From: an uncultured bacterium
GTDB taxonomy: Bacteria; Cyanobacteriota; Vampirovibrionia; Gastranaerophilales; Gastranaerophilaceae
DNA length: 64,000 nt
Reading direction: 5' to 3'
Assembly: GCA_902779645.1 (NCBI GenBank)
Contig: CACZCH010000011.1
Location: forward strand, 7,587 to 71,586
Every line of letters starts with the position of its first letter. The stretch's first letter is position 1. The notes beneath the pieces are model-generated. The model was not told the DNA's origin and did no database searches. It saw only the letters and a list, made by a program, of their open reading frames with translations. Shown here one piece after another: positions 34,792-63,509 of this stretch. The position numbers were made by a program, and so were the translations under genes.

Positions 34792-37700
34792 TTATTCTAC
34801 TTCCATAACATTGTCAGTCCAAAGTTCACATTGTTTCATTACTGTTTCAACTGCACCTTGTTCTTCTTCTGGAGGGTAATTATATTTTTTAAGCAGTCTT
34901 TTTACCATCATCATCATTTTTGCTCTTGCAAACTGCTTATTCTGCCAGTCAACAGTTTTATTTCTTCGCAAAGTATCTGTTAATTCTTTCGTCATTGCAA
35001 CAAGTTCTTCATTCTTATAAAAATCTTTTACTGCTTGAGGTCTTGTTAAAGCATCATAGAAAGCAATCTCTTCGTTGTTAAGTCCTAATTCTTCACCTTC
35101 TTTTTGAGCTTCTGAGATTTGTTTAGCAATTTTCATTAACTCTTCAATAACTTCTGCGTTTGTGATTAGCCCGTTTATGTACTTATTCATTATTGCCTGA
35201 ATAATTTCACTAAATTTTTCACTCTTAACAAGGTTTGTTCTTTTGTATATAGAAACCTGTTCAGCAAGAAGTTTTTTCAAGATTTCAACTGCTATATTTT
35301 TCTCTTTCATTTTGGAAATTTCTTCCAAGAATTTAGGATCAAACAGAGAGAACTGTTCTTTTACATCCGAGAACAAATTAATTACACCATCACTCTTAAT
35401 ACTTTGCCTTAAAAGTTCATTGATTCTTTCATTCATTTCTTTTAATGAGATTTTCTTATTACTACCTGAGTTTAAATCTCTCATTACTAAAACTCTTATT
35501 GCTTCAAAGAATGCAGCTTCAATTCTATCATCTTCATCTACTATTGAGGAACAAAGAGATAAAGCTTGGTGTAACATCAACGCTTCTTTTAGGAATGTTT
35601 CTTTTTTATCTTTATAATTTGGTGCGATAATAAAGTTTATGGCTTCTTTTATTGCTCTTGATCTATCTAAATCAGAGCCTGTTTTGAATTTTGAATAATC
35701 GTGTCCGTGGAATAAATCCTGACAAACTGATAATTTTTCTTTGAATTTTGGATAAGCTTGTGTTGAAATATCAGGATTGCCGTAATTGTTTCTATCTCTT
35801 ACTGTGTAATCATTCATTGCTTGTTTTAGAGCAGTTGCTATTCCAACATAATCAACTACCAAACCGCCTTCTTTATCTGCATAAACTCTATTAACTCTTG
35901 CTATTGCCTGCATCAAGTTATGTCCTGCCATTGGTTTATATACATACATTGTAGCAAGAGAAGGAACGTCAAATCCTGTAAGCCACATGTCAACAACAAT
36001 GGCAATTTTTAGCGGACTATCTGCCTTTTTAAATTTGTTAGCAAGTTCTTCTTTATGTTTTTTGTTTCCGATAATTTCACGCCATTCTTCAGGGTCATCA
36101 TTCCCAGAAGTCATTACCACTGCAACTTTTTCTTTTCCTTTTTCGTTCCAATTTGGGCGAAGTTCTAATATCTTATGATAAATCTTTAATGCTATTGTTC
36201 TAGAGTAAGCAACAATCATCGCCTTGCCTGTTAGCAAATGTTCTCTGTTTTCTTCATAGTGCTTGATAATATCATTTACTAATGAATTTATTACATCATC
36301 ATCACCCAAAATTGTTTCCATTTGTCCAAGTTGTTTTTTGCTTTTTTCAACAACTTCAGGGTCAGCATTAAGAGCCATTAGGTCGTATTCTTTATCAATA
36401 AGTGCTAAGGTGTTTTGGTCAAGATTCAGCTTAACAACTCTGCTTTCGTAATATACAGGACGAGTTGCCCCATCTTCAACCGCTTGTGTCATATCGTAAA
36501 CATCAATGTATTCCCCAAAAACTTCTCTTGTGTTTTTATCTTTTTGAGAGATTGGAGTACCTGTAAAACCTATAAAAGTTGCATTAGGTAAACTATTTCT
36601 GATTACTCTTGCTGTGCCGATTTTGATTTTACCAGTTTTTGCATCGACTTTTTCAGTTAATCCGTATTGTCCCCTGTGTGCCTCATCAGCCATAACGATA
36701 ATGTTTCTTCGTTCTGTTAGCGGTTCTTCGGATTCTTCAAACTTTTGCATTGTGGTAAAGATTATGCCGTTTGCCTCTCTGCCGTCCAATAATTCTTTTA
36801 AGTTTTCTCTGCTTTCAGCCTGAACTGGTGTTTGACGGAGAAAGTCCTTGCATTTAGAAAATTGACTGTATAATTGATTATCTAAATCATTTCTATCAGT
36901 CAAAACAACTATTGTAGGACTGTTTAAGGCTTCTTGTAAGAGGTGAGCATAGAATACCATTGATAAAGATTTTCCACTTCCTTGAGTGTGCCAGAAAACA
37001 CCGCCTTTTCCGTCAGTTTCGGTTGCGTGTTTAGTTGATTCAATAGCTTTTCTTACTGCAAAATATTGGTGATAAGCAGCAAGTATTTTTATTCTGTCTA
37101 TGCCGTCTGAGGAAAAACAGATAAAGTTTTTAATAATATCAAGTAATCTCTCTTTCGGGAAAATTCCTTCAAAGAATGTTTCAAAATCTGCAATTTTAAT
37201 GGATTCAGACTTGCCGTCTTTAGTTTTCCATTCCATAAAACGTGACTCGTCAGAAGTAATTGTTCCAGCACAGCTTTTGATTAAATCACTCATAACACAT
37301 ATTGCGTTATAGGTAAACATTGTGGGAATCTCATGCATATAATTTCTGATTTGTCTGTATGCTTCACTTGCATCGGTTTCTTCTCTTGAGGGAGATTTTA
37401 GCTCCATTAAAACAACAGGAATTCCGTTTAAGAAAATTAGAATATCAGGACGTTTTTCGGAATTTTCGATGAAAGTCCATTGGTTAGCGATAATGAATGA
37501 GTTGTTGTTAATGTTTTTGTAATCTACAAGGTAGATAATTGTAGAACGGCTTTCCCCGTTTTCTAAATAAGTTGCGGTGATACCGTTTTGCAAGTAATCC
37601 ATAAATACGGTGTTTTGTTGTGGAATATCACTATTTTCAATATGTTTAAGCTTAAATATGGCATCTTCAATAGCTTCTTGCGGAGCTTTTGGGTTAATTC

Positions 37701-37848
37701 TATTGATAGAATCAAGCAAAATGTCTTCATACAGAGGGCTGTAATAATCATGTTCGACATCATAACCGCAAATGTGGTCATACCCCATTTTTTCAAAAAG
37801 TTCTATTATCGAATTTTCATAACTTTGTTCTGTATAAAGACTTTGCAT
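34792..37848 (-). CDS. hsdR: Type I restriction endonuclease subunit R
   Basis: RPDILIFLNGIP..LMELK, WHTQGSGKS, DEAHR, GFTGTP, VVDMWLTGFD, QAIARVNR; C-terminal DUF3387-like. Confidence 0.96.
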   Translation of the reverse strand: MQSLYTEQSYENSIIELFEKMGYDHICGYDVEHDYYSPLYEDILLDSINRINPKAPQEAIEDAIFKLKHIENSDIPQQNTVFMDYLQNGITATYLENGESRSTIIYLVDYKNINNNSFIIANQWTFIENSEKRPDILIFLNGIPVVLMELKSPSREETDASEAYRQIRNYMHEIPTMFTYNAICVMSDLIKSCAGTITSDESRFMEWKTKDGKSESIKIADFETFFEGIFPKERLLDIIKNFICFSSDGIDRIKILAAYHQYFAVRKAIESTKHATETDGKGGVFWHTQGSGKSLSMVFYAHLLQEALNSPTIVVLTDRNDLDNQLYSQFSKCKDFLRQTPVQAESRENLKELLDGREANGIIFTTMQKFEESEEPLTERRNIIVMADEAHRGQYGLTEKVDAKTGKIKIGTARVIRNSLPNATFIGFTGTPISQKDKNTREVFGEYIDVYDMTQAVEDGATRPVYYESRVVKLNLDQNTLALIDKEYDLMALNADPEVVEKSKKQLGQMETILGDDDVINSLVNDIIKHYEENREHLLTGKAMIVAYSRTIALKIYHKILELRPNWNEKGKEKVAVVMTSGNDDPEEWREIIGNKKHKEELANKFKKADSPLKIAIVVDMWLTGFDVPSLATMYVYKPMAGHNLMQAIARVNRVYADKEGGLVVDYVGIATALKQAMNDYTVRDRNNYGNPDISTQAYPKFKEKLSVCQDLFHGHDYSKFKTGSDLDRSRAIKEAINFIIAPNYKDKKETFLKEALMLHQALSLCSSIVDEDDRIEAAFFEAIRVLVMRDLNSGSNKKISLKEMNERINELLRQSIKSDGVINLFSDVKEQFSLFDPKFLEEISKMKEKNIAVEILKKLLAEQVSIYKRTNLVKSEKFSEIIQAIMNKYINGLITNAEVIEELMKIAKQISEAQKEGEELGLNNEEIAFYDALTRPQAVKDFYKNEELVAMTKELTDTLRRNKTVDWQNKQFARAKMMMMVKRLLKKYNYPPEEEQGAVETVMKQCELWTDNVMEVE

Positions 37849-39338
37849 TAGGCTTTTGCTCCTTTGATTACTTTTAGAGTACTTAATAATTTTGTATCAT
37901 AAACTTTTCTGTCATTTACATAAAAATCAACCTTTTCACCTTGTATAGTTAAATCTATTTTGTTTCTTTGTCCTAGTATGAAAGGATTTTTATTATATTT
38001 AAAAAATCTTAGTCTTCCGTCTATTATTATATCTATTGTAATAGTTCCATCATAAGATTTCCAAATTTTAAATTGAGTTTTAGCGGTTGAACTAGAAAGA
38101 CTGAAAATGAAAGAACCTAATGGGTACTTATCCCAATCTATTAAAGGTGTAAAGAATATATTATTTAATTCTATTTTTGGATTATTATATGGTAATTCTG
38201 GGATGTTATTTATATCTGTATAAACTGTCGGAAATTTAAAATCAAAATCAATATTTTTTCTTGTTTTGCAATTCGGTATTACAAAAAATTGCATGTTTGC
38301 AGTTTGATATATTGAATTTGATATTACAATTGCATTTATTCGTTTGGTAGATCTTTCTAACCAAATCTTTATCTTAGAATAGTTACTATGTATATACTGT
38401 TCATAATTCAAGTTATTATTACAAGGGAGTTGAATATGCAAAAGATTTAATTCATTTTTTATTAATTGCTTTCTTGCCTTATTGATTTCATTATATATTT
38501 GTTTATCAAAATTTATGTTTGGTTTAGATTCTGTTCCCATGAAAGTTAAATTAAAGAAGTTATTAGGTAACATTTCTAATGAGATATGCTGTTCTGAATT
38601 TCCAATATGTATCTCACTACAATTATTATCAATTTTATTAATTTCTACTTCTACATTGTAGTTTGTTATGTAATATTTACCAATGGAATCAAGCTTTATT
38701 AGGTCAATAATGTTTTTTACAACTTGATTAATATCACTTTGATAAAAATTTTCTCCTGTTTTAACCCAGATGCTATATGATTTATTATTCTCAATACAAA
38801 AATTTTGAACTTGTTCTGTTAAAATTTCACAAGCACAATGGTTTTGGATATCATAATCTTCTAAAGATTTACACTCAATATTTATTTTTTTTGTGTTGTT
38901 GTATTTATCATATATTGTGAAATCAGGAATTTTTCCTTTGTTTTGTTCTTCATTATTTATTTGAACTTCGTTTAAATCAGAATATAACCTTGCTGTTTGA
39001 ATCTCAAATGCCGCGGAATAGAATGTATTTTTTTGTAACAAACTATTAATCAACCTTTGTAGATTTGGAAGTTTTTCCATGTCTAATAAATTTAATATTA
39101 TAGTAATAATAAAATGTGTACCGAATGAACACTCTGCTATACCTGTTTCTTTGTTGCGTTCTACATCAAGATTATAAGAAATCCAATAATCAAAAAAAGG
39201 ATGATAATTTCTTCTTCTTTCTTCATTAGACATTGTACGATATGCATCTGCCTGTTGAATAAAATCTTCTCCCAAGAATTCTTCAAAAAGTTTTCTATAG
39301 TTTTCTAAACGCTTTGTATCAATATCAATAATTTCCAT
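37848..39338 (-). CDS. Hypothetical protein with PD-(D/E)xK-like nuclease motif and beta-rich C-terminal domain
   Basis: GKIPDF...NIECKS; TAATG overlap with hsdR. Confidence 0.6.
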   Translation of the reverse strand: MEIIDIDTKRLENYRKLFEEFLGEDFIQQADAYRTMSNEERRRNYHPFFDYWISYNLDVERNKETGIAECSFGTHFIITIILNLLDMEKLPNLQRLINSLLQKNTFYSAAFEIQTARLYSDLNEVQINNEEQNKGKIPDFTIYDKYNNTKKINIECKSLEDYDIQNHCACEILTEQVQNFCIENNKSYSIWVKTGENFYQSDINQVVKNIIDLIKLDSIGKYYITNYNVEVEINKIDNNCSEIHIGNSEQHISLEMLPNNFFNLTFMGTESKPNINFDKQIYNEINKARKQLIKNELNLLHIQLPCNNNLNYEQYIHSNYSKIKIWLERSTKRINAIVISNSIYQTANMQFFVIPNCKTRKNIDFDFKFPTVYTDINNIPELPYNNPKIELNNIFFTPLIDWDKYPLGSFIFSLSSSTAKTQFKIWKSYDGTITIDIIIDGRLRFFKYNKNPFILGQRNKIDLTIQGEKVDFYVNDRKVYDTKLLSTLKVIKGAKA

Positions 39339-39357
39339 TTGTCTGCATCCACTTTGT

Positions 39358-40236
39358 TTAAATTAATTCTTCCGCTTTTCCTTTTGTCCCTTTTATCGTT
39401 TTTAAAAACTCATCTACATTACTTTTTCGTTCTAGGTTGTCTTTTATTAAGACACAGAAAAGCATAAGTTGATACAATTCATCATACCATTTTTCTAATT
39501 CTTTTTCATCAAGGTTAATTATTGTATTTTTATTATCTTTTTTAGTTTTATTGTTATGTCTAATGTGTAAATTATTAAATAGAGCATTTGTTTTATTTAA
39601 AAAGTCATTATATCCTTCAAGTGAAGATGTAAATAGAGGTTCATATTCTCTATATATACTGTTTAATAGATTTCTCTTTTGTTCTAAATCACCTTTTAGC
39701 GATAAGTGGTTGTACATTAAAATAGCAAGAGCTGTTTCTTCTGAAGATATTTCAGCAACTGCTGTTGCAACAGGATTTTTAGGAATTAATAGTACTTTTT
39801 CTTCTTTTTCATTAACATGAATATCGTGATTTATATAATCTAACAATTTTTTCATATTTTCCATTAATATATAAAAATCATCTTTTACATCACAGTCGGA
39901 TTGTTGATAAATGTTGTACTTCTTAACTACCAAATATATTAAATTATTATAATATTCTAAGAGTTTTATACAGTCATCAAAAGAATCTTCTTTAGTATAT
40001 TTAAATTTTATTCCTAAATCTTGTTTAATCTCATCACAATTAAAATAAAAACCTCTTTGTTTCCATGATTTGAACAACATTTCGTCTACAAATTCTTCTA
40101 TTGTATAATTTGTAGAAACAGTGTAACTATCATGATATTCTATTAGATTTATACTAAATAAAAGAATAATTTTATTAACTTCTTTGTATATATCAAACTT
40201 ATTCTTCATTAATGTAAAAATATCTTGTCTAGACAT
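39358..40236 (-). CDS. Hypothetical protein, possible AbiJ/HEPN-like
   Basis: Helical C-terminal domain with FNNLHIRHN; AGGAGG SD. Confidence 0.5.
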   Translation of the reverse strand: MSRQDIFTLMKNKFDIYKEVNKIILLFSINLIEYHDSYTVSTNYTIEEFVDEMLFKSWKQRGFYFNCDEIKQDLGIKFKYTKEDSFDDCIKLLEYYNNLIYLVVKKYNIYQQSDCDVKDDFYILMENMKKLLDYINHDIHVNEKEEKVLLIPKNPVATAVAEISSEETALAILMYNHLSLKGDLEQKRNLLNSIYREYEPLFTSSLEGYNDFLNKTNALFNNLHIRHNNKTKKDNKNTIINLDEKELEKWYDELYQLMLFCVLIKDNLERKSNVDEFLKTIKGTKGKAEELI

Positions 40237-40250
40237 TTATACAAATCCTC

Positions 40251-41516
40251 CTAACTGTTTTTTACATATAATTGAACGGCCTTTTCAACAATATCTTTTG
40301 CAATAATTCTTGAAGAATCTCTATTAATACCTGATAGATAGAGTTCTCTAATTATTAAAGTTAGCATTTTACTTAATATAAATTCTTTTTTATACCAATC
40401 AATACATAAATTATTGAATATACATTGTGCTATTCTTTTGGCCAACACTTTGTCTTCAGACTTAGAAACTATATAGTCAAATAATTCATCTTTAAAATTA
40501 GGATTACCTTCGTTTTCTACCATAATATTTGTATAATAATCCTTATGGTTAGACTGTTTTTCATATCTTTCAAAATCAGGTGCATCAAAAGTCTGTTTCA
40601 TATTTACAGTTTTAATATACCTTAATTGATGCTCTAATTCTGGGAATAGTGTTGATTCATTTATATTGCATAAATTAAGCTCATCCAAAATTTTTTGTTT
40701 ATTTTCACCTGAAACATAGAAAAATTCTTTTTCAAATTCGTCTTTCAAACTTCCTTTACATTTTGTTATAACCCCTTTTTCATCTTCTCCTTTATACGAA
40801 AACATGCTTGGCAATAAGAAGGCACCACTTTGTGCCATTAAACGAATATTATTATTTGTTGGCTGTACAACATATGTAGATTGGATTATGTTTATAAATC
40901 TCTCAAATCCATCTCCAAGCCAATCATTTTTTTCTCTTTCTGTTATTAAATCACTATTATATAGCCGATTTATTACATTTTCCAACGAGTTCTCGTTTTG
41001 TAAATTATACTTTGCTAATTCTGTTACAATTTTTACATACTTATCATCTGAATATACAGGATATGCTTTTTTATAATAAATTAGCCCCCAAGGCTCAAGT
41101 AATTCAATATTATTTTCTTCATCTTCATTTTCTTCTTTCTCTTTAAAATATTCTTCCTCCCCATTAATTTGACAAGCAAAATATAATGCTACTAGTGGAT
41201 TCGTTGTTAAATCTAACAACCTAGTACAAAGCCCATAATGTTGACATTTTGTCATAAGGTCAAAAGTATTGTTAATGGAATTAAATTCTTCAGGGAATTT
41301 TTCTATAGGTTCTTTGAGCAATTGGTGTTCTGAATTAAGCAAGCCCATTCTAAAAATACTTGAATAAATACCCCAATATTCGACTTGTTGTCCTCTAAAA
41401 AAATATTTCAAGGCATAATCTTCATCGTTTTCCCTTATCTCATTAATTTTTTTTAAAAATGACCAAACGGAATCAATTTCATAACCTTCTGACATATCTA
41501 AAGTTTTATGAGCCAT
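40251..41516 (-). CDS. FRG-domain protein
   Basis: FFRGQ, QHYGL.TRLLD.T.NPLVALYFAC, N.RL.AQSG.F, LFPELE. Confidence 0.92.
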   Translation of the reverse strand: MAHKTLDMSEGYEIDSVWSFLKKINEIRENDEDYALKYFFRGQQVEYWGIYSSIFRMGLLNSEHQLLKEPIEKFPEEFNSINNTFDLMTKCQHYGLCTRLLDLTTNPLVALYFACQINGEEEYFKEKEENEDEENNIELLEPWGLIYYKKAYPVYSDDKYVKIVTELAKYNLQNENSLENVINRLYNSDLITEREKNDWLGDGFERFINIIQSTYVVQPTNNNIRLMAQSGAFLLPSMFSYKGEDEKGVITKCKGSLKDEFEKEFFYVSGENKQKILDELNLCNINESTLFPELEHQLRYIKTVNMKQTFDAPDFERYEKQSNHKDYYTNIMVENEGNPNFKDELFDYIVSKSEDKVLAKRIAQCIFNNLCIDWYKKEFILSKMLTLIIRELYLSGINRDSSRIIAKDIVEKAVQLYVKNS

Positions 41517-41518
41517 AA

Positions 41519-42550
41519 TTACACCTCGACCTTATCTATATCTGTTTCATTATTAGACGCGTGCCTTTGGATTTCTAAAATATCACCAATTAGCATATAA
41601 ACGTGCATAAAGCATCTTTCTGCTTCTTCTTTATCTACATTCGCATGAGTTCCTTTGCATGTTTCGTCTAATATATTATCTAATCTTGTTCCTATATATT
41701 CAATATTAGAATTAGTTATTTTATCTAATGTCTTATGCGTAGAATTTTCTTCAATGTAGCATACCAACCTATTAATAAACTGTTCCTCTCCCAAATTTAT
41801 TTCTACTTTTCCTTTTTTAATAGTTTTGTCAGTGGGAGGATATAATTTATCAGCAACTGCCTTTAACATTCTGCGACAAGTCGTTAAAGCATTTGACCAT
41901 TTTTCTGGATTATCATCATTTAAACTATCATATATGGCCGTTAGTTTTTGAGTTTCTTCTGGAAGTATGCTACTTATATAAGAATCTATTCTGCTTTTCA
42001 TTTTTAACCAAATTGATTCAGTTAATGAACTAAATTTTAAATCCATGTATATTTTTTTTACATTGCTATATATAAATCTAGTTCTTTCTGCTAAAAGTAT
42101 TGTATCCTCATTTATACTTGTTAAACGGACTTTTCTTTCACCAGCATTTGTAGGTGGTAATGTTATACTTTGATAAGGATTTGCAGATGATATTGATATA
42201 TTACGGTCATGTGCTTGTTCTAATGCTATCTTATTCGCTTCAATCCTATGTTCAATAGTAGTAATTGCGTAGCAACTCATAACTTCTTTATCATCTGAAT
42301 TAGTACTAACTCTGCCTGCTTTTACACCTAATCGCCATATATCTGGAGCAATTCCGTTTTTACCCTTTGTATATCCACCTGCTTCATATTCAAATATTTT
42401 TTCTAAATCAAATTCATTTACAAGTCTTGCTAACCTACTTGCTTTTAATGCAACGTTTGCCATAGGAAGTCTTGATAATTCAATATCGTCAAGCGTTTCC
42501 TTGGCTAATAGAAAAGCCTCTTCTTTTATTTCTTGATTATCAATATTCAT
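41519..42550 (-). CDS. AbiTii-like N-terminal domain protein with helical (HEPN-like) C-terminus
   Basis: DIEL.......ALKA.RLA.L......E..GY resembles AbiTii; C-terminal A....RR.L..VAD ... KGTH. Confidence 0.65.
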   Translation of the reverse strand: MNIDNQEIKEEAFLLAKETLDDIELSRLPMANVALKASRLARLVNEFDLEKIFEYEAGGYTKGKNGIAPDIWRLGVKAGRVSTNSDDKEVMSCYAITTIEHRIEANKIALEQAHDRNISISSANPYQSITLPPTNAGERKVRLTSINEDTILLAERTRFIYSNVKKIYMDLKFSSLTESIWLKMKSRIDSYISSILPEETQKLTAIYDSLNDDNPEKWSNALTTCRRMLKAVADKLYPPTDKTIKKGKVEINLGEEQFINRLVCYIEENSTHKTLDKITNSNIEYIGTRLDNILDETCKGTHANVDKEEAERCFMHVYMLIGDILEIQRHASNNETDIDKVEV

Positions 42551-42552
42551 AT

Positions 42553-43719
42553 CTACACCTCCACCTTATCTACATCGATTTCACCATTCATGAGTTTGGG
42601 CAAAAGTGTGTCACGGAGTTGGGTTAAACGTGAGTTTTCTATGTCGTTTGCAAATATTTGTTCAAAGAATGGTTCAACAATATTGTTAAATTTTATATTT
42701 ATATCTTTTGTTGCTATTACTACTTCAGAATTTTTTATTTCTGTTGATGACAAATTTACTTGAACACCACTATTAGCTCTTTTCCTTAAGTCGGTAAGGA
42801 AATCTATACTATTAGTAAGTAAATATATGTAAGGATATGATATGCCATAATCATTCTTACAACGCAATAAGCCTACACGCTGGTTTACAATATATTTATT
42901 ATCTACTTCCATCAGTGCAGTATTCCCCAAAATAGCGACATTATCCTTCATGTCAGTCATAGCCATTAATACATCACCTTTTTTGAGAATATATTTTTCT
43001 AAACCTTGAGTTTTATCTATAGGATACCAACTTTTTGTCCCAGTTGGATTAAACCCACCACCTCTGTTGATATGACCTTGTTTAAAAACATCAAAGCAAT
43101 CGCCCTCTGGACTATTTAATAGTTCACTACTCTTGAAAGCGTAGCCATTTGAAAATTCAACAATATCATCAAGTATCCCAACCTGCCAATCTTCAGGCAT
43201 GGTGCCGCCGAAAGATTCAAAGTCTATAAACCAAGATTTAAATATTGCCTGTGCTTGTTGTTCAAGGTTTTTGTTTATGGAGTTGTTTAATTCGATTTTG
43301 TCATCAATCGAACTCAACACCCTCGCAATCTTCCGCTGTGTTTCTAATGGTGGAAGATTTATTTTTATATTATTTAGTATTTCTTGTGTTAAAAGAGGTT
43401 GCCCCGTACCGATACTTCTTTGATTTAGCCTTAATGATTTCAACAAATAGTATATAAATACTATGTCAGACTCAATTTTATTTTTTGCAACTATAGCATT
43501 ATCTGATACCCAACATTTACCTTTTGAATAATATACACTTCCACAATATGCACCTACACGCCCTATGATAGCACATTCTTCATAATTAGTTTCATTAGTA
43601 TAATTTAATATCCCATTACCACCATATACAGGAATAGCACCTTTTTTATCAGGACGTTTTTTACCATTTTTGAAATCTACATATTTTTCTAATTTACACT
43701 CTTTCCAATCAGAGGTCAT
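42553..43719 (-). CDS. hsdS: Type I restriction-modification specificity subunit
   Basis: Two TRDs with conserved PPLETQRKIA..L..IDDKIELN and L.QLRDTLLPKLM.GEI. Confidence 0.95.
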   Translation of the reverse strand: MTSDWKECKLEKYVDFKNGKKRPDKKGAIPVYGGNGILNYTNETNYEECAIIGRVGAYCGSVYYSKGKCWVSDNAIVAKNKIESDIVFIYYLLKSLRLNQRSIGTGQPLLTQEILNNIKINLPPLETQRKIARVLSSIDDKIELNNSINKNLEQQAQAIFKSWFIDFESFGGTMPEDWQVGILDDIVEFSNGYAFKSSELLNSPEGDCFDVFKQGHINRGGGFNPTGTKSWYPIDKTQGLEKYILKKGDVLMAMTDMKDNVAILGNTALMEVDNKYIVNQRVGLLRCKNDYGISYPYIYLLTNSIDFLTDLRKRANSGVQVNLSSTEIKNSEVVIATKDINIKFNNIVEPFFEQIFANDIENSRLTQLRDTLLPKLMNGEIDVDKVEV

Positions 43720-43721
43720 AA

Positions 43722-44423
43722 TTACACCACCATATCTAATTCTTTTGCTGAAAAGTAAGCCCCATCCAATACAACTGATTCCGTATTAGGTTGTTTTTGG
43801 ATAGTTCTAATTATAGTTCTTTTTGCTTCTTGTGATTTTTTCATATCTATATATTTAATTTTTTCGTTATCATCAGGTATTTTCTTCGTTAGATAGCCAG
43901 TGATACAATCTTTTAGCAATTGCAGGGGCCTATCTTGATATGATTCAGTGGTCTTATTTGTTAAAAATTCTACTATCGGAGTAATTAAATCTACTTCAGC
44001 ACTAGGAAATTTTACTATATTAAATTCCTTTACATTTAAATTGATTCCAAAATTTATGTTAAAACAACCTGGTGTTGCAGATAAGATATGTATTTGTAAA
44101 TTATCAGTATCAAATTTAAACAGGTCACAAAAGTTTTCTGCAATTATTCTAAAACTTTGCACAATACTTATAAAATCTTCATCAGACAAACAATTTGCAC
44201 TTGTGTTTATTTTGAAAGAATAAACATTATCTTTAGTAGAATTCTTTTGATTTTGTATTATATGAAATAATCTTTTTACCGCACGAACTAGATTTGTATC
44301 TTCTTCTGATACATGTACAGTAACCATCCTCATACCGTCTAAATAGTCTTGACTATATATGTTAGGTTCTAAATCACTTTGTGAATTCTTTTTTATAATT
44401 TTATTGAATAAATCTTTTAACAT
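43722..44423 (-). CDS. Hypothetical protein embedded in R-M operon
   Basis: 233-aa ORF, AAGGA SD, 2 bp from hsdS start. Confidence 0.7.
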   Translation of the reverse strand: MLKDLFNKIIKKNSQSDLEPNIYSQDYLDGMRMVTVHVSEEDTNLVRAVKRLFHIIQNQKNSTKDNVYSFKINTSANCLSDEDFISIVQSFRIIAENFCDLFKFDTDNLQIHILSATPGCFNINFGINLNVKEFNIVKFPSAEVDLITPIVEFLTNKTTESYQDRPLQLLKDCITGYLTKKIPDDNEKIKYIDMKKSQEAKRTIIRTIQKQPNTESVVLDGAYFSAKELDMVV

Positions 44424-44450
44424 ACTGATTCCTTTGATAATAAGGCTACT

Positions 44451-45242
44451 TTAGAGGTCATTTTCTTCTACCTCCCATTTCTTTTGTACTTGTTCTTTTA
44501 TCTCTATTTCTAATAATGCTTTTTGTTTTCTTTTTAAACCGAAGTCTATAATCCAAGTATTCAGAATCTCATTTATATATTTTAAATCCACTCTTATTGT
44601 TTTTATTTCCTCTACATCATACTTTTCATTAACCTGTGGATCATTCAACATCTCTAAATAATCTTTTTGTGTTTCATCAAAAATCTTTTTAGCACGAATA
44701 TATCCATTAACGACTTCATCCTTGATTAAATTTTCACATTTATAATATTTTACAAGTGCATTATTTATGTTTATCAGGCTTACAAATAGTTTTGCTAAAA
44801 GTTTTACAGTAGATACTTCTATATGTTCTAATTTTTCTATATAAAGTTTTATCGGGTGATCATAATTTGAAATAATATCCTGTTGCTCACAAATGTAATT
44901 TATATCACTATGAACATAAGTTAATATTTCATAAAGCAAGGGGGAATATTGAGTTAAAAACCCATACTCATCAATATTAAAATTTGAGTCGTTTATAGTA
45001 ATAGGAACCATTGATTTTACTTCTGATTCAGTTAAATTATTTATCTCAGCAACTATATTCTCGTGGTGGTATACAAAAACTTTTATCAATACATTGATAT
45101 CGTAGAAAAGTTTAAGTAATTTTGCTTTTTCAATTTCTTTTTGTTGTTTTTCTGCTTGCTTTAGATTAAAGCAATAGGCGCCCCCAGCACCTGCAAAGGC
45201 ACCCGCTAAAGTTGATATGAAGTTACTCCAATCTATACACAT
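44451..45242 (-). CDS. Hypothetical protein with N-terminal TM helix embedded in R-M operon
   Basis: FISTLAGAFAGAGGAYCF segment then coiled coil; ATG directly follows the hsdM stop. Confidence 0.72.
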   Translation of the reverse strand: MCIDWSNFISTLAGAFAGAGGAYCFNLKQAEKQQKEIEKAKLLKLFYDINVLIKVFVYHHENIVAEINNLTESEVKSMVPITINDSNFNIDEYGFLTQYSPLLYEILTYVHSDINYICEQQDIISNYDHPIKLYIEKLEHIEVSTVKLLAKLFVSLININNALVKYYKCENLIKDEVVNGYIRAKKIFDETQKDYLEMLNDPQVNEKYDVEEIKTIRVDLKYINEILNTWIIDFGLKRKQKALLEIEIKEQVQKKWEVEENDL

Positions 45243-46754
45243 CTACTTCACCTCAAAACCTATTACTGAAAGATTCTTCTTTATTTCATCTTGAAGTTCA
45301 TTCGATTTAGCAAACATTTCTGAAAGTTCAGAGGTTAATCGTTTCATTTTATCTTCAAATGGTTCCCCGTCATCTTCCTGATCTTCTATACCAACATATC
45401 TTCCAGGAGTTAGGATATAATCTTGTTTTGCGATATCTTCTGTAGAAACAACAGCACAGAAACCTTTTACATCCTCTAAAGTTCCCTCTTGAAAAGCCGT
45501 AAAAGTATCAGCTAGTTTATTTATATCATCTTCTGTAAAATCTCTATGCTTTCTATCTACCATATAGCCCATTTTACGAGCGTCTATAAACAGAGTTTTT
45601 CCTTTTTGCTTCTTACCCTTTGTGATAAACCATAGAGTTACTGGTATTGTTACACTATAAAAAAGTTGTGTCGGCAAAGCAACAATACCTTCTATCAAAT
45701 CATCTTCTATAATGCGTTTTCTTATCTCACCTTCACCGCTTGTTTGACTTGATAATGCACCATTAGCCAAAACCAATCCAATCTTTCCATTCGGTGCTAA
45801 ATGGTGTATCATGTGCTGGATCCATGCAAAGTTAGCATTCCCTGCTGGTGGTATGCCATACTTCCAGCGAACATCATCTTGTAACTTATCTTGCCCCCAG
45901 TTTGAAAGATTGAATGGAGGGTTAGCCATAATGAAATCAGCTTTCAATGTTGGGTGAAGATCATTAAAGAAAGTATCAGCATGGCTCGGTCCAAAATTAG
46001 CATCAATACCACGAATAGCCATGTTCATTTTTGCCATTTTCCAAGTATCAGCATTGGATTCCTGACCGTAAACAGAAATTCTATCTCTGTTTCCACTATG
46101 CGCCTGCAAGAATTTTACAGACTGAACAAACATACCTCCTGAACCACAACAAGGGTCGTAAACCCTACAATTATCAAATGGTTTCAAAATAGAAACTAGA
46201 GTTTTAACTATGCTTGACGGAGTATAAAATTCACCGCCCTTTGTTCCTTCATAAGCAGCAAACTGTGCTATACAGTATTCATAAGTTCTGCCCAGCAAGT
46301 CCTTGCTTTCTTCTGTATCGTCCATTTTTACATTATTAGTGAACAAGTCCACAACTTCACCTAAAACTCTTTTATCTAAATCAGGCGAGCCATAATTTTT
46401 AGGTAAAACACCTTTAAGAGATTTATTTTCTCTTTCAATAGCAAGCATGGCTTCGTCAATGACTTTGCCAATCTCAGGAGTATGAGCAGATTCAGAAATC
46501 TTGTTCCACCTTGCTTCTTCTGGCACAAAGAAAATGTTTTCTGCCAAATATGCAATCGGATCGTTTTCAAAACCATCACCCTCTGCCAAAAGTTCTTGAT
46601 ATCTTTTATCGAAAACACTTGAAATATATCTAAGGAAAATCAACCCTACAATAACTTTTCTGTATTCGGCTGCAGGAATATGTCCCCAAAGTACACATGC
46701 AGCATCCCACAATTGCTTTTCAAAACCGATATTAGCATTATTTTTCTCTGCCAT
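45243..46754 (-). CDS. hsdM: Type I restriction-modification methyltransferase subunit
   Basis: GEFYTP, YDPCCGSGGM, ANPPFN, NFAWIQH, LTPGRYVG. Confidence 0.97.
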   Translation of the reverse strand: MAEKNNANIGFEKQLWDAACVLWGHIPAAEYRKVIVGLIFLRYISSVFDKRYQELLAEGDGFENDPIAYLAENIFFVPEEARWNKISESAHTPEIGKVIDEAMLAIERENKSLKGVLPKNYGSPDLDKRVLGEVVDLFTNNVKMDDTEESKDLLGRTYEYCIAQFAAYEGTKGGEFYTPSSIVKTLVSILKPFDNCRVYDPCCGSGGMFVQSVKFLQAHSGNRDRISVYGQESNADTWKMAKMNMAIRGIDANFGPSHADTFFNDLHPTLKADFIMANPPFNLSNWGQDKLQDDVRWKYGIPPAGNANFAWIQHMIHHLAPNGKIGLVLANGALSSQTSGEGEIRKRIIEDDLIEGIVALPTQLFYSVTIPVTLWFITKGKKQKGKTLFIDARKMGYMVDRKHRDFTEDDINKLADTFTAFQEGTLEDVKGFCAVVSTEDIAKQDYILTPGRYVGIEDQEDDGEPFEDKMKRLTSELSEMFAKSNELQDEIKKNLSVIGFEVK

Positions 46755-46912: not shown

Positions 46913-47263
46913 CTAACATTTTTTCTGACTTAGGATTTTCATCTTACAAAGTATAGAACTAAGTTCAGGGGTTGAGTTGGATTTTAATGTTTGTATAGCG
47001 GAGATCTCGGAGTCGGTAAATTCTACTATCTCCTTCATAGAATAGTTTATAAATCCCCAGCGTTTGATTTTTGAGCCTTCATTAACTACATCAACCTGCG
47101 GAAATGCATCTCTTATTGCTGATATCATTCTTTGAGCTGTGCGGACGCAAACGTTAAATTCTACACAAATATCTTTAATACAGATACCTCTTGGTTCTGC
47201 AAGTAACATATGCAATAATTGCATGAAATCGGTCATTCTTGAATATCTAATAGTATCACTCAT
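46913..47263 (-). CDS. Winged HTH protein resembling the N-terminus of WYL-family regulators, WYL domain absent
   Basis: I.DIC.EF.V..RT.QR.I..I HTH_11/DeoR-like; 116 aa. Confidence 0.65.
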   Translation of the reverse strand: MSDTIRYSRMTDFMQLLHMLLAEPRGICIKDICVEFNVCVRTAQRMISAIRDAFPQVDVVNEGSKIKRWGFINYSMKEIVEFTDSEISAIQTLKSNSTPELSSILCKMKILSQKKC

Positions 47264-47270
47264 TTTTCAC

Positions 47271-47897
47271 CTATAAATTCTCTTTATACATTTTTACTAA
47301 TTTATAGAAAGAAGTTGGCTTTAGTTTTAGTTCTGCCATAGCTTTTCTTGCTGTAATCAAACCATTTTGCCATACTTCATAAATATTTTTCCAATCCTCA
47401 GGATATTTTATCTTTGGTCTGCCTAAGTGTTTACCTTTTTCTTTTGCAATCTTAATTCCTTCTGCTTGTCTTTGTTTGATAAAAGCTCTTTCCTGTTCTG
47501 CTACATAACTCAACAGTTGCAAGACGATATCAGAAATTACTTCGCCGATAAGCCCATCTGTCTTTGTAGTATCAAGGATTGGCATATCAATTACTCTAAT
47601 GTGAGCTTTTATGTCTTTTACTATCTCACGCCATTCTTCACAAATTTGTTTGTAGTTTCTGCCAAGACGGTCAATAGACTTGATTACAAGGATATCTCCT
47701 TCTCTAAGTTGAACCTTTAGAGCTTGATACTGCGGACGGTCAAAATTTTTACCTGAGCACTTATCAACAAAAATATCTCTTTCGTTAATTCCCATATCCA
47801 ACATAGCTTCAAGCTGTCTGTCTTCGTTTTGATCGGTCGTGGATACTCTACAGTATCCAAAAGTTTTTATGTTCGTATTAGCCAAGATTGTCTCCAT
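47271..47897 (-). CDS. Serine recombinase (resolvase/invertase family)
   Basis: GYCRVST.DQN..RQ, SGK...RP, V.SIDRLGRN, R.RQ.EGI..AK..G...GRP, C-terminal HTH. Confidence 0.95.
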   Translation of the reverse strand: METILANTNIKTFGYCRVSTTDQNEDRQLEAMLDMGINERDIFVDKCSGKNFDRPQYQALKVQLREGDILVIKSIDRLGRNYKQICEEWREIVKDIKAHIRVIDMPILDTTKTDGLIGEVISDIVLQLLSYVAEQERAFIKQRQAEGIKIAKEKGKHLGRPKIKYPEDWKNIYEVWQNGLITARKAMAELKLKPTSFYKLVKMYKENL

Positions 47898-48397: not shown

Positions 48398-51300
48398 TTA
48401 TCTCAAACGATACATTTCTATTTCAGCTTGTTCTCCTTCTCCTACAACATGCCTGTCTGCATCGTAATCAACATAAACTTCTTGTTCACCCGAGTTTCCG
48501 ATAATCTCCATTGTGTGCGTAGATTTATCGTAAATATCCATGTTCAGCTTATGTCTATTTGGTCCAGCGAAGATTGGTAAATCTGGTTGTCCTATTTCGG
48601 CACAGAGCTTTTTAGCATAATCGACAAATGTATCTCTAATCTTATCGTTGTTTTGATATTTAGTTTTTAGCTCAATATTATCAAGGACAAGAGCTGGTTT
48701 ACCATCAACGTATGCGAGATATATCATTGTATTGCCAACAAAGCTGCCTTTATCAGTAAGTTCTATTGCACCGATACACTTATTCATTATGTATGTAGGA
48801 GCAGACCATTCGTTGAAGTTTCTACCTAAAGCCGTACAACATTGAGCATCGTTACCCAAACCCAATGCTTTCTTTATATCATACATATCGGTTTTTCTAA
48901 CTTCAATTTCTGCCGTTTCACCATCTTTAATACTTGAAGCGTTATCGACTTCTTGTGTTCTCATTTTAATAAGGTGAGTGTACATAGTACCTCTTGCATT
49001 ATCAATTTGAGGGTCATAGTGTTTTTTCGTCCAAAAATCGTTACTTATAACTTCTTTCTTGATTAACGAAACTATATCGTCCATATCTTCAAAAATGATT
49101 GGTTTACCATTTTTATATAAACGATAGTATTCTGTAGAGCCAGCACTAAAGCCATCACCTTCCCAATTATCTTTTTGAGATTTTTCAAACGTAACACCAA
49201 GTTGTTCTTTCAAGTGTTTAAAGATGGGTTCGGTAACCTCTTTGGGTAAAGATTGGAAAAGAGCATCATTCAAGTCTTCTTCTAAGTTATGAATAGCTGC
49301 TTGTTTAGCTTCTTCTGCGTTAAGTTCAATTTCTACTGTTGTATAAGAGTTTTTATCAACCTTAGTAAACTTTTCATAATCAAAACCAAGTTCTTCAAAT
49401 ATGCGTTTTGTTTCTACGTTTTGTGGCATTTGGTCGATTGCTTGTTCAATCGTTAGATTTTGATTATCTCTTACGATTTCAACAAGAGTTTTCATGTTAT
49501 CAAAGAATTCATCACTTGATATGAATAATTTTGATATGTATTTACAATGTATCAAATCTAATTTTTGAGATAGAGCTTCATCATACTCAACACCGAGTTT
49601 CTGATAAATCTTTTTGTTTACAGCCTCATTCCAAATAGCATCATTCTCTGGAGTAGAAGGTTTAATCATATTAATAAAATCTGTTATTTCTTCTTCTGTA
49701 GAGATTTCTGCTAATGCTGAAAGCACACGAAGTTTTGTAACAACTTCTTGTGGTTCAAGACCAGAGTTTTGAAGTAAAAATTCTTTTAATTCTTTCTGCT
49801 TGTTACTTATGTCTTTCATTATTTCTTTTACTTGAGCAGCATTTTCACCTTGATAGTATATAGACTGAGCTTGACTACCAAGAGTTTTTGATTGTTTTTG
49901 AAGTTCTTTTACTTGTTGTTTTACTTCTGGTGTTTCAGCGTTTTCTCCCTGTTTTAATTGCTTAATCTGCTCATCGATTTGAGCCTTTTGAGCTTGCAAC
50001 TCTTTTATACGAGCCAGATTATCAGCTCCGACTACTTCATTGAGCTTTTTCTTTAGTCCTGTAATCTCATTATTAAGTTCTTGGTATCTTTGGCTTGATT
50101 GAGGATTTATTTTTTGTCGTAACAGTTCTTTGTTACCTTCGGATAGAAGTTGTCTATCAAGATTTGCTACTTCTATCATAAATTCTCCAAACTCTTCTAA
50201 CATAAGAGGAAATGCTGCTTCGGTGTTGCCTAAACCAATCAAATCTATCGTGTAAACTGCATCACGTCTGGTCGTAGTGCCTTCAATTTCACCATCTGTA
50301 ATATCTTCAAGTCCAGATTTTAACAAATCTTTGTTCGCAAGTGCATCTTGAATTAATTGTTTATGCAATTCTAAGATATTATCATTTTTTGCCCTTGCAT
50401 ATGATTCTATCATTTCGATACGATTTATTGCTGGTATAGATTTTACATCTTCGTTATTCAGTAATCCACGTTTTATAATATTATCCCAGCAATCAGCAGA
50501 ATAATTAACTAAGTCTGGGTATTTATCAAGTAATCCCTCTTTTAAAGCATTTATAATAGTATCTTCATAACCTATTTTTAGATTTGATATAAGTCGCTTT
50601 ATAAGCAAAGGTGGACAATTTAGTGAGGTATCTGTACATAGTCTTATAGCAAATTTAGCTTTATCTTTATTGCTAGACTCATATTGGCTACTATTATCGT
50701 CTTCTCCTATTTCAAATCCATCTAACCATGAATTTTCATCAGATTTTATAGCTTGTAAAACGTCTGAAATTAGATATTTAGGGAATTTATCATTAGTAAT
50801 TAACACTTTTGCAAGTTCTATATTATTATCATTTATATAGTCAATTACATTCATTACAACATCAAACTCTGTTTCTTGATGGGGGTTTAGTTTGTGTTCT
50901 ATGTAACCCATTATTTTAGTCTTAACATTTGTTCCGTCTAAAGTAGATAGGAAGCTTCTATTGTTTGATAAAGACGATAAAATATTATTATCTATCAAGA
51001 ATTGAGCAAATTCTATTTTTGTATTTCGAGCTTTTCTTGAATTCATACTATTTGTAATTTTATTTAAAAGAGTTTGAAATCTTGAACTGTCTATTCTTTT
51101 ATTTTTATTTTTTAAGTAGAACAGAATACTTGAAGGGTCAATATATGGATTAGAATTTTCGCAAGCGAATTCTACTATTTTAGAAAAATCAATAGGACTT
51201 TTTTCATCTATCTCTTTTAGCTTATTAATAGCAATAACTGCTTGTTCACTCAAATCATATTCTATATCTAAATCTATTCCTTGGCTTTTAGCTTTTTCTT

Positions 51301-62648: not shown

Positions 62649-63509
62649 CTATTTTCCTCCTTTCATAAATTGACATTTACAACATATATGAGGAAAACAT
62701 CCTGATATAAAGGTACAACTATGTCCTCGTCCGAATTTCCTTGCATTATCAATTTTCTTTTGTGTTTCCAGAAAACTATATTTCTCATATGGTTGTGAAA
62801 GCTCATGAATCAACTCATCTGAATCCTCAATAGTTGCCAAAACTGATACCATTGAAAACCACTCTGGTTCGCTTAACGTTACCGCATTATCTCTACAATG
62901 AGCAAGAAATGCACAGTTTTTAAACATAGCATTAATGTTGATATTTTTATATTTTTTAGGTGGTGCAGAAAAGCATTCATTTTTATATTTTGCCTGTCTG
63001 TTATACAAACCTTTATTTATATAATTGACCCAAGGTTCGGGCAATTCAGCAATTACAAAGTTTCCATTGTTATTTATACCATTAATAATTTCATATCGCC
63101 TGCCGTTTATAATGGATGGTGCAAACATTATGTAAGCGTTATAACGGATGTCAACATTTTTCGTTAATTTTCCCTTGGGTTCAATAATACCTTTATCGGA
63201 AAAAATTAAGTGATAGCCATTTCCTGTTGCTGACGATTGAGTCAATGTATCAGGCAACGGGCAATTTAACTCTTCTTGTAATGCCAATAATTCTTCTGCT
63301 GCTTTGGAATCAGGATTGTGATAATCAAGATCAAATGCAATCACGCCTGATTTTGCACAACCAACTGCAATGTTGTAGCCTTTCTTAATTAATCCTTCTA
63401 CATCTACATTGAAACGAGCATCATTCAACCCGTGCTTTGTTGCAGGAATTTTAGAATTACTAACACAAGCAACAACAGCAAAGTTTTTTAAATTTTTATA
63501 TAAATCCAT
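62649..63509 (-). CDS. Bifunctional DNA primase/polymerase (Prim-Pol) with Cys-rich C-terminal domain
   Basis: K.P...HG..DA, YNIAV, AFDLDYH, GNGYHLIF, VDIR.....M.APS..NG..Y; C-terminal CAFL.HC...EPEW...C...C. Confidence 0.88.
   Translation of the reverse strand: MDLYKNLKNFAVVACVSNSKIPATKHGLNDARFNVDVEGLIKKGYNIAVGCAKSGVIAFDLDYHNPDSKAAEELLALQEELNCPLPDTLTQSSATGNGYHLIFSDKGIIEPKGKLTKNVDIRYNAYIMFAPSIINGRRYEIINGINNNGNFVIAELPEPWVNYINKGLYNRQAKYKNECFSAPPKKYKNININAMFKNCAFLAHCRDNAVTLSEPEWFSMVSVLATIEDSDELIHELSQPYEKYSFLETQKKIDNARKFGRGHSCTFISGCFPHICCKCQFMKGGK

Follow-up and report, generated by a model that had tools for sequence, protein, structure and literature searches.

A type I restriction-modification (R-M) operon occupies positions 34,792 to 46,754 of the window, a 64,000-nucleotide stretch of DNA from an uncultured cattle-gut bacterium of the Gastranaerophilaceae (GenBank assembly GCA_902779645.1, contig CACZCH010000011.1, positions 7,587 to 71,586). 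Its hsdM, hsdS and hsdR genes are intact, the last encoding an EcoR124-like subunit, and the two slots between them, hsdM-hsdS and hsdS-hsdR, hold six passenger genes, here called g2, g3 and g5 to g8. The reading favoured, with slightly better than even confidence, is that these are defence-type cassettes stacked in the two slots and acting independently of one another. Directly visible are the anatomy of the operon and the integrity of its motifs, the occurrence of each cassette on its own, the turnover of cargo on the same backbone and the scars at the junctions. From hsdM to hsdR the genes are:

45243..46754, minus strand: hsdM, 503 aa, type I N6-adenine DNA methyltransferase
44451..45242, minus strand: g2, 263-aa passenger in the hsdM-hsdS slot, with a Gly/Ala-rich hydrophobic N-terminal helix followed by a helical domain
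43722..44423, minus strand: g3, 233-aa near-orphan passenger in the hsdM-hsdS slot
42553..43719, minus strand: hsdS, 388 aa, specificity subunit with two target-recognition domains
41519..42550, minus strand: g5, 343-aa passenger in the hsdS-hsdR slot, with an AbiTii N-terminal domain
40251..41516, minus strand: g6, 421-aa FRG-domain passenger in the hsdS-hsdR slot, PADLOC candidate PDC-S15
39358..40236, minus strand: g7, 292-aa passenger of an unnamed family in the hsdS-hsdR slot
37848..39338, minus strand: g8, 496-aa rare passenger in the hsdS-hsdR slot, with a helical N-terminal region, a putative PD-(D/E)xK-type core and a C-terminal beta-sandwich
34792..37848, minus strand: hsdR, 1018 aa, restriction/translocase subunit

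An earlier note on this DNA had described nine co-oriented minus-strand genes, and the list of open reading frames (ORFs) agrees exactly with its order and coordinates. Recomputed spacing (0, 27, 2, 2, 2, 14, 19 and −1 nt, in gene order from hsdM to hsdR) also agrees with its range of −1 to 27 bp. That the inserted genes are richer in AT than hsdM and hsdR is borne out both by GC content (.370 for hsdM,.338 for hsdR and.328 for hsdS, with.235–.307 for the six passengers) and by GC at third codon positions, or GC3 (.16–.22 for the passengers,.25–.27 for the hsd genes and also for hom and metG, housekeeping genes close by). The ribosome-binding sites of the nine-gene operon are within the 3′ ends of preceding ORFs, and a scan of the operon for promoters and terminators gave no meaningful excess of either type of site. 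A single operon is therefore the simplest reading; the nine genes are close enough for one transcript, from which co-transcription may be inferred. The ORF list has no small partner ORFs between the nine genes, and no toxin or antitoxin family was matched in Pfam, PADLOC or NCBIfam. In a search of public sequencing runs the passenger region was complete in only four bovine-gut DNA metagenomes, all from one study.

The three subunits have strong family matches. HsdM matches Pfam N6_Mtase (7.7e-110) and HsdM_N (8.3e-24) and PADLOC MTase_I (4.2e-205), and its NPPF catalytic motif is intact at residue 278. HsdS has two stretches of Pfam Methylase_S (1.3e-37) and matches PADLOC Specificity_I (2.3e-70). 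HsdR has the Pfam domains HSDR_N, SWI2_SNF2, T1R_D3-like and T1RH-like_C (PADLOC REase_I 3.1e-302), and motifs PD134..ELK153, GSGKS290, DEAH388 and QAIARVNR647 are all intact in it. The locus has what characterizes a type I R-M system: an HsdM methylase with NPPF, an HsdS with two target-recognition domains, and an HsdR with both a nuclease and a superfamily 2 (SF2) translocase. With these matches and motifs, the proposal that defence-type genes are nested in an intact type I operon is upheld. The nearest solved HsdR is that of the type IC enzyme EcoR124I (E 1.5e-36, in an alignment limited to residues 100–460, the nuclease and motor); the C-terminus is of the HindI-like T1RH-like_C type by Pfam.

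HsdM is 82–94% identical to proteins of 80 genomes, with those from gut metagenome-assembled genomes (MAGs) of Gastranaerophilales (Melainabacteria) being closest. Its relatives (L013–L092; related loci are given here by L numbers) are also found in Firmicutes, Helicobacter, Elusimicrobia, Alphaproteobacteria, Treponema and one Methanomethylophilaceae archaeon MAG. Because identity is this high across several phyla, the backbone has been widely moved between lineages, and the distribution implies recent cross-phylum transfer, possibly even cross-domain transfer (or else a binning error in the archaeal MAG). Many of the related Firmicutes loci have a phase-variable hsdS shufflon arrangement. 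Such an arrangement was considered for the window locus and rejected, since hsdS is present there in one copy only and none of its inverted repeats is significant.

As the earlier note had predicted, comparison of the same hsd backbone in other genomes reveals turnover of its cargo. The comparison set is 53 complete loci with HsdM 82–94% identical; passengers were counted if of at least 90 aa, and the counts include the recombinases of phase-variable hsdS loci. Three loci have no passenger, 13 have one, 14 have two, 11 have three, six have four, three have five, one has six and two have seven. The window locus is at the top of this range, with six or more passengers being present in 3 of the 53, and its hsdM-to-hsdR distance of 7.4 kb is the second largest (median 3.7 kb). 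Where HsdM is >90% identical, hsdM is followed by RhuM/Fic and then by TIR, PIN_12, DUF4917 or unknown proteins, and hsdS is followed by a 285-aa unknown protein, an AAA_15/21 ATPase or SocA. The 131 cargo proteins when pooled include Fic/RhuM, NTase-HEPN pairs, FRG, AAA_15/21, PIN_12, Schlafen and DUF3644, and also DUF4145, TIR, SocA, HepT, YafQ, RVT and the tyrosine recombinases of phase-variable hsdS loci; by family assignment this is a typical defence and toxin repertoire. At the DNA level the operon is a mosaic in which hsdM and hsdR are ~88% identical in 54–94 loci, the hsdS core is conserved, and each passenger matches 1–11 loci only, at 64–78% identity.

The gene first after hsdM in L001–L007, L013, L019 and L093 is nearly always a 325–334-aa RhuM/Fic (PADLOC PDC-S23/PDC-S05), and after it comes a single gene that varies (TIR, PIN_12, DUF4917 or others). 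The window operon has no RhuM/Fic, and g2 and g3 occupy the place after hsdM.

Each passenger is found without the others. A g8 homologue is the sole passenger in the hsdS-hsdR slot of L008; relatives of it are also in L025 and L026 and, away from any R-M operon, in L010 (with an AAA_15/21 ATPase and a PLD protein as neighbours) and L012 (between obg and groEL). The same slot has a g5 homologue, 66% identical, as its sole passenger in L096–L098, where the other slot varies, and in Collimonas a g5 homologue adjoins HNH, HATPase_c_3 and methylase genes. The sole passenger of the slot is g7 in L001, L003, L023 and L085, and g6 is alone in L090 and L091. Homologues of g2 are in the hsdM-hsdS slot without g3 in L026, L027 and L028, and a g3 relative, 47% identical, comes directly after hsdM in L099 without g2. 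Two-gene modules of g2 with g3 and of g6 with g7 were considered and discarded, each partner occurring without the other. Also discarded was a common origin of the passengers or a docking domain shared by them: profile comparison with HsdM, HsdS, HsdR and each other gave the g6-HsdR match only, and no relation of the six passenger families to each other. Because each is found without the others and the families are unrelated by this comparison, the six are taken to be autonomous single-gene cassettes, and the locus, as judged from these comparisons, is a stack of six separate cassettes and not a six-component machine. The suggestion that the six form one coordinated multi-layer system does not survive their occurrence alone, or with other neighbours, in related operons. 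All six have the features of embedded candidates, being nested, co-stranded, non-mobilome and non-metabolic. Since L028, a Gastranaerophilales locus, has the same order g2, hsdS, g6, g7, some of the stacking predates this genome.

How the stack may have grown is indicated by scars at two of its junctions. A 36-nt direct repeat flanks g5, and the two copies, which are in the same register, are identical at 30 of 36 positions:

42548..42583, minus strand: left copy, comprising the hsdS 3′ end, stop codon and next ATG; TGAAATCGATGTAGATAAGGTGGAGGTGTAGATATG
41514..41549, minus strand: right copy, comprising the g5 3′ end, stop codon and g6 ATG; TGAAACAGATATAGATAAGGTCGAGGTGTAATTATG

Because a copy of the 36-nt hsdS 3′ end sits at the end of g5, the last ~8 codons of g5 specify an HsdS-like tail: g5 ends ...DIDKVEV, resembling the HsdS ending ...EIDVDKVEV. 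The HsdS C-terminal tail GEIDVDKVEV is typical of this backbone, and in the compared loci such a tail is present in 56 of 129 HsdS ORFs as against none of 1682 other ORFs. Of the g5 homologues examined at their C-termini, P0021, the closest, is alone in having it; other close homologues lack an HsdS-like ending and have one of the ...ILEIERxx type (e.g. ...ILEIERLKNKEVV in P0163–P0166). The g5 tail fits an unequal recombination, we infer, in which the g5 3′ end became joined to the hsdS 3′ end preceding g6. At the other end of the slot, the last five codons of g8 give a tail, ...KGAKA*, in which the hsdR leader with its ribosome-binding site, AAAGGAGCAAAAGCCTAATG (37848–37870, minus strand), is translated. 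In L008 this leader lies between genes, and in g7 homologues directly adjoining hsdR it is again translated, giving the ending ...KSIKGAKA. The hsdS-hsdR slot is therefore bordered by the 3′ end of hsdS on one side and the ribosome-binding site of hsdR on the other, and incoming cassettes evidently keep translational coupling intact. While the scars are seen directly, the recombination that would have left them is reconstructed from them.

Searches of Pfam, NCBIfam, PADLOC (PADLOC-DB v2.0.0) and PHROGs place two of the passengers in families. The earlier note had at least three without a recognizable family, and the count rises to four (g2, g3, g7 and g8); the per-gene PADLOC check it had proposed gives AbiTii for g5 and PDC-S15 for g6, but leaves these four unmatched. 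PDB sequence and profile searches with g5, g6, g7 and g8 gave nothing significant.

The description of g5 as AbiTii-like is confirmed by Pfam AbiTii (1.9e-6; 28.7 bits, above the gathering cut-off of 27.6, over profile positions 2–52 only), with which PADLOC AbiTii (1e-8) agrees. At least 357 homologues of ~340 aa make up the family, all with PF18864, and AbiTii was matched in 33 of 33 sampled (best 4.7e-14). The C-terminal half of g5 has no Pfam or PDB profile match; in the family alignment it has an invariant K299-G300-x-H302 and no Rx4-6H. Fusion of an AbiTii N-terminal domain to a c2405-type HEPN, with the His kept and the Arg absent, has been described (PMC3710099), and by analogy the g5 C-terminal half is probably a c2405-type HEPN-like domain. 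By the same architecture g5 is more likely than g7 to be the HEPN-related passenger. No abiTi partner gene is present at the window locus, or at L096–L098 where the g5 homologue is the sole passenger of its slot.

For g6 the FRG label is equally secure, with Pfam FRG at 3e-18, an FRG motif at residues 40–42, matches to FRG-type PHROGs and a full-length match (residues 5–418) to the PADLOC PDC-S15 model PDLC04927 at 2e-132. The Frg domain has been assigned to the ADP-ribosyltransferase (ART) superfamily as a predicted NADase effector (PMC9503650). The last ~60 residues of g6 appear weakly HsdR-like, in that they align with the HsdR C-terminus (Pfam T1RH-like_C 1.3e-3, BLASTP 8e-5, hhalign 9.6e-4), and HsdR itself matches another PDC-S15 model, PDLC04934, at 2.2e-8. 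These indications are weak but consistent; the hhalign probability is 22%, and g6 was missed at E <0.01 by a hidden Markov model (HMM) of 48 HsdR C-termini, which leaves the idea of a docking tail on weaker footing. In EcoR124I, the C-terminal region of HsdR takes part in assembly with the methyltransferase. Because of this, it is plausible by analogy that the g6 tail is a module for docking on the methyltransferase core.

In the case of g8, the label ‘PD-(D/E)xK-like’ draws support from an invariant motif and from the order of secondary structure elements in a model. The protein is rare, with just 14 relatives in 5.8 billion proteins, and in the family alignment E112, K136, P138, D139, E155, C156 and K157 are invariant. 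An AlphaFold2 (AF2) model with pLDDT 79.4 has alpha103–120, beta124–127, beta140–143, beta151–158, alpha160–183 and beta188–194, with E112, P138-D139 and E155-x-K157 falling on the expected elements of an alpha-beta-beta-beta-alpha-beta core. As modelled, this order fits a PD-(D/E)xK core. Residues 389–483 resemble galectin/CBM66 beta-sandwich folds (E 3.6e-3), and in a PDB fold search the best 50 matches listed are all galectin-like, to the C-terminal beta-sandwich, with no nuclease fold among them. The only relative on a viral contig (IMG/VR) of any unannotated passenger is a g8-like gene, 26% identical, at 245–1615 of L180, near the end of a 61-kb predicted viral contig.

The two passengers of the hsdM-hsdS slot, g2 and g3, have no family match in Pfam, NCBIfam, PADLOC or PHROGs. 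In the g2 family alignment (A3) W5, L12, F16, G18, A19 and A22 are invariant. The earlier note's ‘TM protein’ label is plausible for the family, where the KD19 of the N-terminal helix is 1.8–1.9 in homologues, but marginal for the window copy, where it is <1.21; a membrane anchor is accordingly possible for this helix, more readily in the homologues than here. No g2 relative was found in IMG/VR. For g3 there are only 12 relatives among 1.84 billion cluster representatives.

The remaining passenger, g7, belongs to a widespread but unnamed family (457 clusters, none with a Pfam domain or functional name) which, from its genomic contexts, is found almost only inside restriction operons; it has no match in Pfam, NCBIfam, PADLOC or PHROGs. 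At ~50% identity the family has 37 invariant columns, rich in polar residues, which include WKxR 58–61, E162, Y175, H177, N221, H227, N229 and R270/K271 together with R226 and D252. Its AF2 model is confident (pLDDT 84.9, pTM 0.74), yet with Foldseek neither PDB (best E 0.31) nor BFVD (best E 0.064) yielded a match to it. The label ‘HEPN-like’ had been attached to g7. It finds no support here: no HEPN family was matched in Pfam, NCBIfam or PADLOC, the model has no fold match, and in that model R226 and H227, though conserved, stand next to each other in a loop and not in Rx4-6H spacing.

The genomic contexts of g7 bear on whether the passengers are independent of the restriction enzyme. A rival proposal makes some of the passengers guards in the manner of PrrC, which is sequestered in a type I complex (PMC3874165) and nearly always occurs embedded. 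The Hsd complex would bind such a guard (g7 first of all, and possibly g6) and keep it inactive until the disabling of the enzyme by an anti-restriction protein of a phage freed or activated it. That some passengers are such restriction-dependent guards is possible, though on the unlikely side. On this backbone g7 is in the hsdS-hsdR slot of L001, L003, L015, L023, L028, L045, L085, L093 and L094. Among metagenome relatives at least 42% identical and with enough flanking sequence (36 in all), hsdR is downstream in about 32 and hsdS upstream in about 29, mostly 0–40 nt away; about 90% of close relatives are placed between the two genes. A distant relative lies between hsdS and an EcoEI-type HsdR (L167), others are in an SNF2/type III Mod-Res cluster (L148 and L152), and no g7 relative is present in the plasmid and phage (tblastn) or IMG/VR collections. 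The guard proposal also draws on the alignment of the g6 C-terminus with that of HsdR, but that similarity is the weak one described above. Moreover, no passenger has the architecture of PrrC or a match to an ABC ATPase or HEPN in Pfam, PADLOC or NCBIfam, g7 has no detectable module in common with HsdM, HsdS or HsdR, a few g7 relatives are outside R-M operons (L111, L125 and L146), and g5, g6 and g8 are all also found outside type I operons. The signs of coupling to the restriction enzyme, suggestive ones, are thus confined to the distribution of g7 and the HsdR-like tail of g6.

In the type III-like restriction cluster of L148 (1704–12720) and L152, where the g7 relative is 30–32% identical, the gene order is an SNF2 helicase of 1082 aa, proteins of 123 aa and 210 aa, the g7-like protein, an N6_N4 methylase of 640 aa, a 265-aa protein, and a type III Res with RE_endonuc of 1041 aa.

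Two further proposals single out g7. It might belong to the restriction enzyme itself as an accessory or regulatory subunit (acting, for instance, in assembly, restriction alleviation or HsdR activity) instead of being a separate immune effector. That it keeps one place, with hsdS immediately before it and hsdR after it, in two type I families and a type III-like cluster would suit a subunit, and ~50% identity with 37 invariant columns is more what a housekeeping partner than a fast-evolving effector would show. However, about 45 of the 53 same-backbone loci have intact hsdMSR without g7, and the invariant H177, R226, H227, N229, E162 and D252 look catalytic rather than adaptor-like, and the proposal is judged very unlikely. 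Alternatively, g7 would found a new R-M-dedicated family, its fold without a solved or viral relative, that serves as guard or partner of type I (at least two families) and type III-like complexes and senses inhibition or engagement of the enzyme, with g6 in addition docking via its HsdR-like tail; taken as a whole this is an unlikely combination, offered tentatively.

With independently acting cassettes, the reading favoured here, the nine genes would be read as one transcript and the passengers made whenever the restriction enzyme is made. As a first line, HsdM2S would methylate host DNA and HsdR, its motifs being intact, would cut unmethylated incoming DNA. Behind it, each passenger would act alone on phages that escape restriction. 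The AbiTii domain of g5 could be a sensor which, with a c2405-type HEPN-like domain, would make it an RNA-targeting abortive-infection protein. Through an FRG domain of the ADP-ribosyltransferase superfamily, g6 would be an NAD+-consuming effector, whose HsdR-like tail may dock on the methyltransferase core. A PD-(D/E)xK DNase with its beta-sandwich domain as sensor is proposed for g8, and a membrane-anchored effector for g2; for g3 no mechanism is proposed. The sole passenger whose distribution suggests working with the restriction enzyme itself is g7. The stack would have been built by recombination between related operons with different cargo, with joints where hsdS ends and where the ribosome-binding site of hsdR lies.

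Several observations weigh against this account. Every effector activity in it is deduced from motifs or family names, and the literature searched has no biochemical validation of the AbiTii plus c2405 or FRG/PDC-S15 families. No database searched gave a significant nuclease match for g8: its best PDB profile match, a nicking endonuclease, has E 0.1, and hhalign against the HsdR nuclease motif gave E 0.094. The membrane-anchor helix of g2 is weak in the window copy, and neither g3 nor g7 offers a mechanistic handle. The almost exclusive embedding of g7 speaks against its being fully independent. Finally, a search of RNA runs for the locus sequence found DNA metagenomes only.

The operon is at the edge of what may be one genomic island, spanning 34.8–63.5 kb next to hom and metG, which the operon adjoins. 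The other features are:

46913..47263, minus strand: winged-helix protein of 116 aa directly upstream of hsdM; PADLOC WYL 6.5e-5, to the N-terminal helix-turn-helix (HTH) part only
47271–47897, minus strand: serine recombinase (Resolvase 2e-28), co-oriented with the operon
48398–54463, minus strand: ORF of 2021 aa with a TTG start, between the R-M operon and further defence candidates
54984–58437, minus strand: PDC-S01 candidate (AAA_14/DUF4143; PADLOC 4.9e-181) and a 667-aa IetA-like double AAA ATPase (5.6e-32)
60756–63509, minus strand: Prim-Pol (8.5e-17) and a DUF927/DUF5906 protein, together a replication module of the kind that integrative mobile elements typically carry

The winged helix of the 116-aa protein is similar to the part with which WYL regulators, BrxR/CapW among them, bind DNA at their N-terminus; the protein lacks a WYL domain and may be a regulator of the operon. 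The window locus has no second hsdS copy or inverted repeats on which the serine recombinase could act as an hsdS invertase. A 75%-identical recombinase gene is downstream of hsdR in the related locus L093, where an AAA ATPase similar to the IetA-like one lies upstream of hsdM. Pfam and PADLOC gave nothing significant for the 2021-aa ORF, and the protein collection has no entry identical to it in sequence.

These surroundings raise the question of whether the passengers are instead selfish genes of addiction or toxin type, or leftovers of mobile elements, which exploit a well-expressed and hard-to-lose operon and give little or no protection from phages. Serine recombinase and Prim-Pol/DUF927 replication genes in the island, the AT-richness of the passengers, which resembles that of recently acquired DNA, and the toxin-antitoxin parts (YafQ, HepT/MNT pairs, SocA and Fic) and recombinases in related slots would all accord with this. 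But none of the six has a small adjacent candidate antitoxin gene or a match to a mobilome family (Pfam, NCBIfam, PADLOC or PHROGs), the g5 and g6 families are recurrently linked to defence, and embedded genes have repeatedly been positive in defence tests; this explanation is considered quite unlikely. Megablast of the whole region against plasmids gave no match.

If the passengers are, as favoured, defence cassettes, their interest is partly practical, embedded genes being a productive source of phage-defence proteins and four unannotated candidates (g2, g3, g7 and g8) being here in one operon. Through g7, the question of how a failure of restriction is sensed by second-line effectors can be approached concretely. 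The junction scars give a sequence-level view of cargo stacking in which translational coupling is kept, and this bears on the growth of defence islands. Were the g6 tail truly an HsdR docking domain, its borrowing would be a general route for coupling effectors to type I enzymes.

The embedding of defence genes in type I operons is established, not new. PrrC in EcoprrI is a nested defence gene (PMC3874165, PMC12707154), HEPN proteins in R-M operons have been described as ‘multi-layer defence’ (PMC3710099), TgvAB is a validated defence module in the type I operon of Vibrio cholerae VPI-2 (PMC11411939), and DarTG2, also validated, is in the hsdS-hsdR slot of a type I operon of enteropathogenic E. 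coli (EPEC), a slot its authors call a likely recombination hotspot (PMC12255303). A systematic ‘guilt-by-embedding’ survey of type I R-M, BREX, DISARM and Hma yielded 145 embedded candidates (Payne et al. 2024, bioRxiv 10.1101/2024.01.29.577857). Since the overall arrangement is thus documented, a specialist would be interested rather than surprised.

The window operon and EcoprrI have in common a co-oriented passenger inside a type I operon (HsdR being here nearest to that of type IC EcoR124I) and, as proposed from sequence, the logic of a second line behind restriction; the nearly exclusive embedding of g7 is as reported for PrrC. However, PrrC joins an ABC ATPase to a HEPN with Rx4-6H, an architecture that none of the six passengers has, and six unrelated passengers in two slots contrast with one. 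PrrC is also sequestered by the enzyme and triggered by Stp; for the passengers such behaviour is a proposal. Like the guilt-by-embedding candidates, the passengers are co-oriented genes, many without a known family, nested in a multi-gene defence system, and g6 matches the PADLOC candidate family PDC-S15; in contrast, g2, g3, g7 and g8 are unmatched in PADLOC-DB v2.0.0, the version to which the comparison extends. TgvAB and DarTG2 are likewise defence modules embedded in type I operons, with the position of TgvAB being comparable to the hsdS-hsdR slot of DarTG2, but they are two-gene modules of known types (GmrSD-like and DarT/DarG, respectively) where the window has single, mostly uncharacterized genes.

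Of the individual passengers, g5 is like the AbiTii plus c2405 proteins (Anantharaman et al. 2013, PMC3710099) in its AbiTii domain, its ~340 aa, its invariant His and its lack of the Rx4-6H arginine. It differs from them in that its last codons would be a recombination scar from hsdS; the likeness of its C-terminal half is to their published description. Lactococcal AbiT needs a second gene, abiTi, which the g5 locus lacks. With FRG/PDC-S15 proteins g6 shares its full-length match at 2e-132 and its FRG motif, and departs from them in its HsdR-like C-terminal tail, a weakly supported candidate docking module. Set beside all these systems, the points of interest of the window operon are its degree of stacking, the four unannotated passenger families, a g7 that is tied to R-M and has no fold relative, an FRG protein with an HsdR-like tail, and the scars at its junctions.

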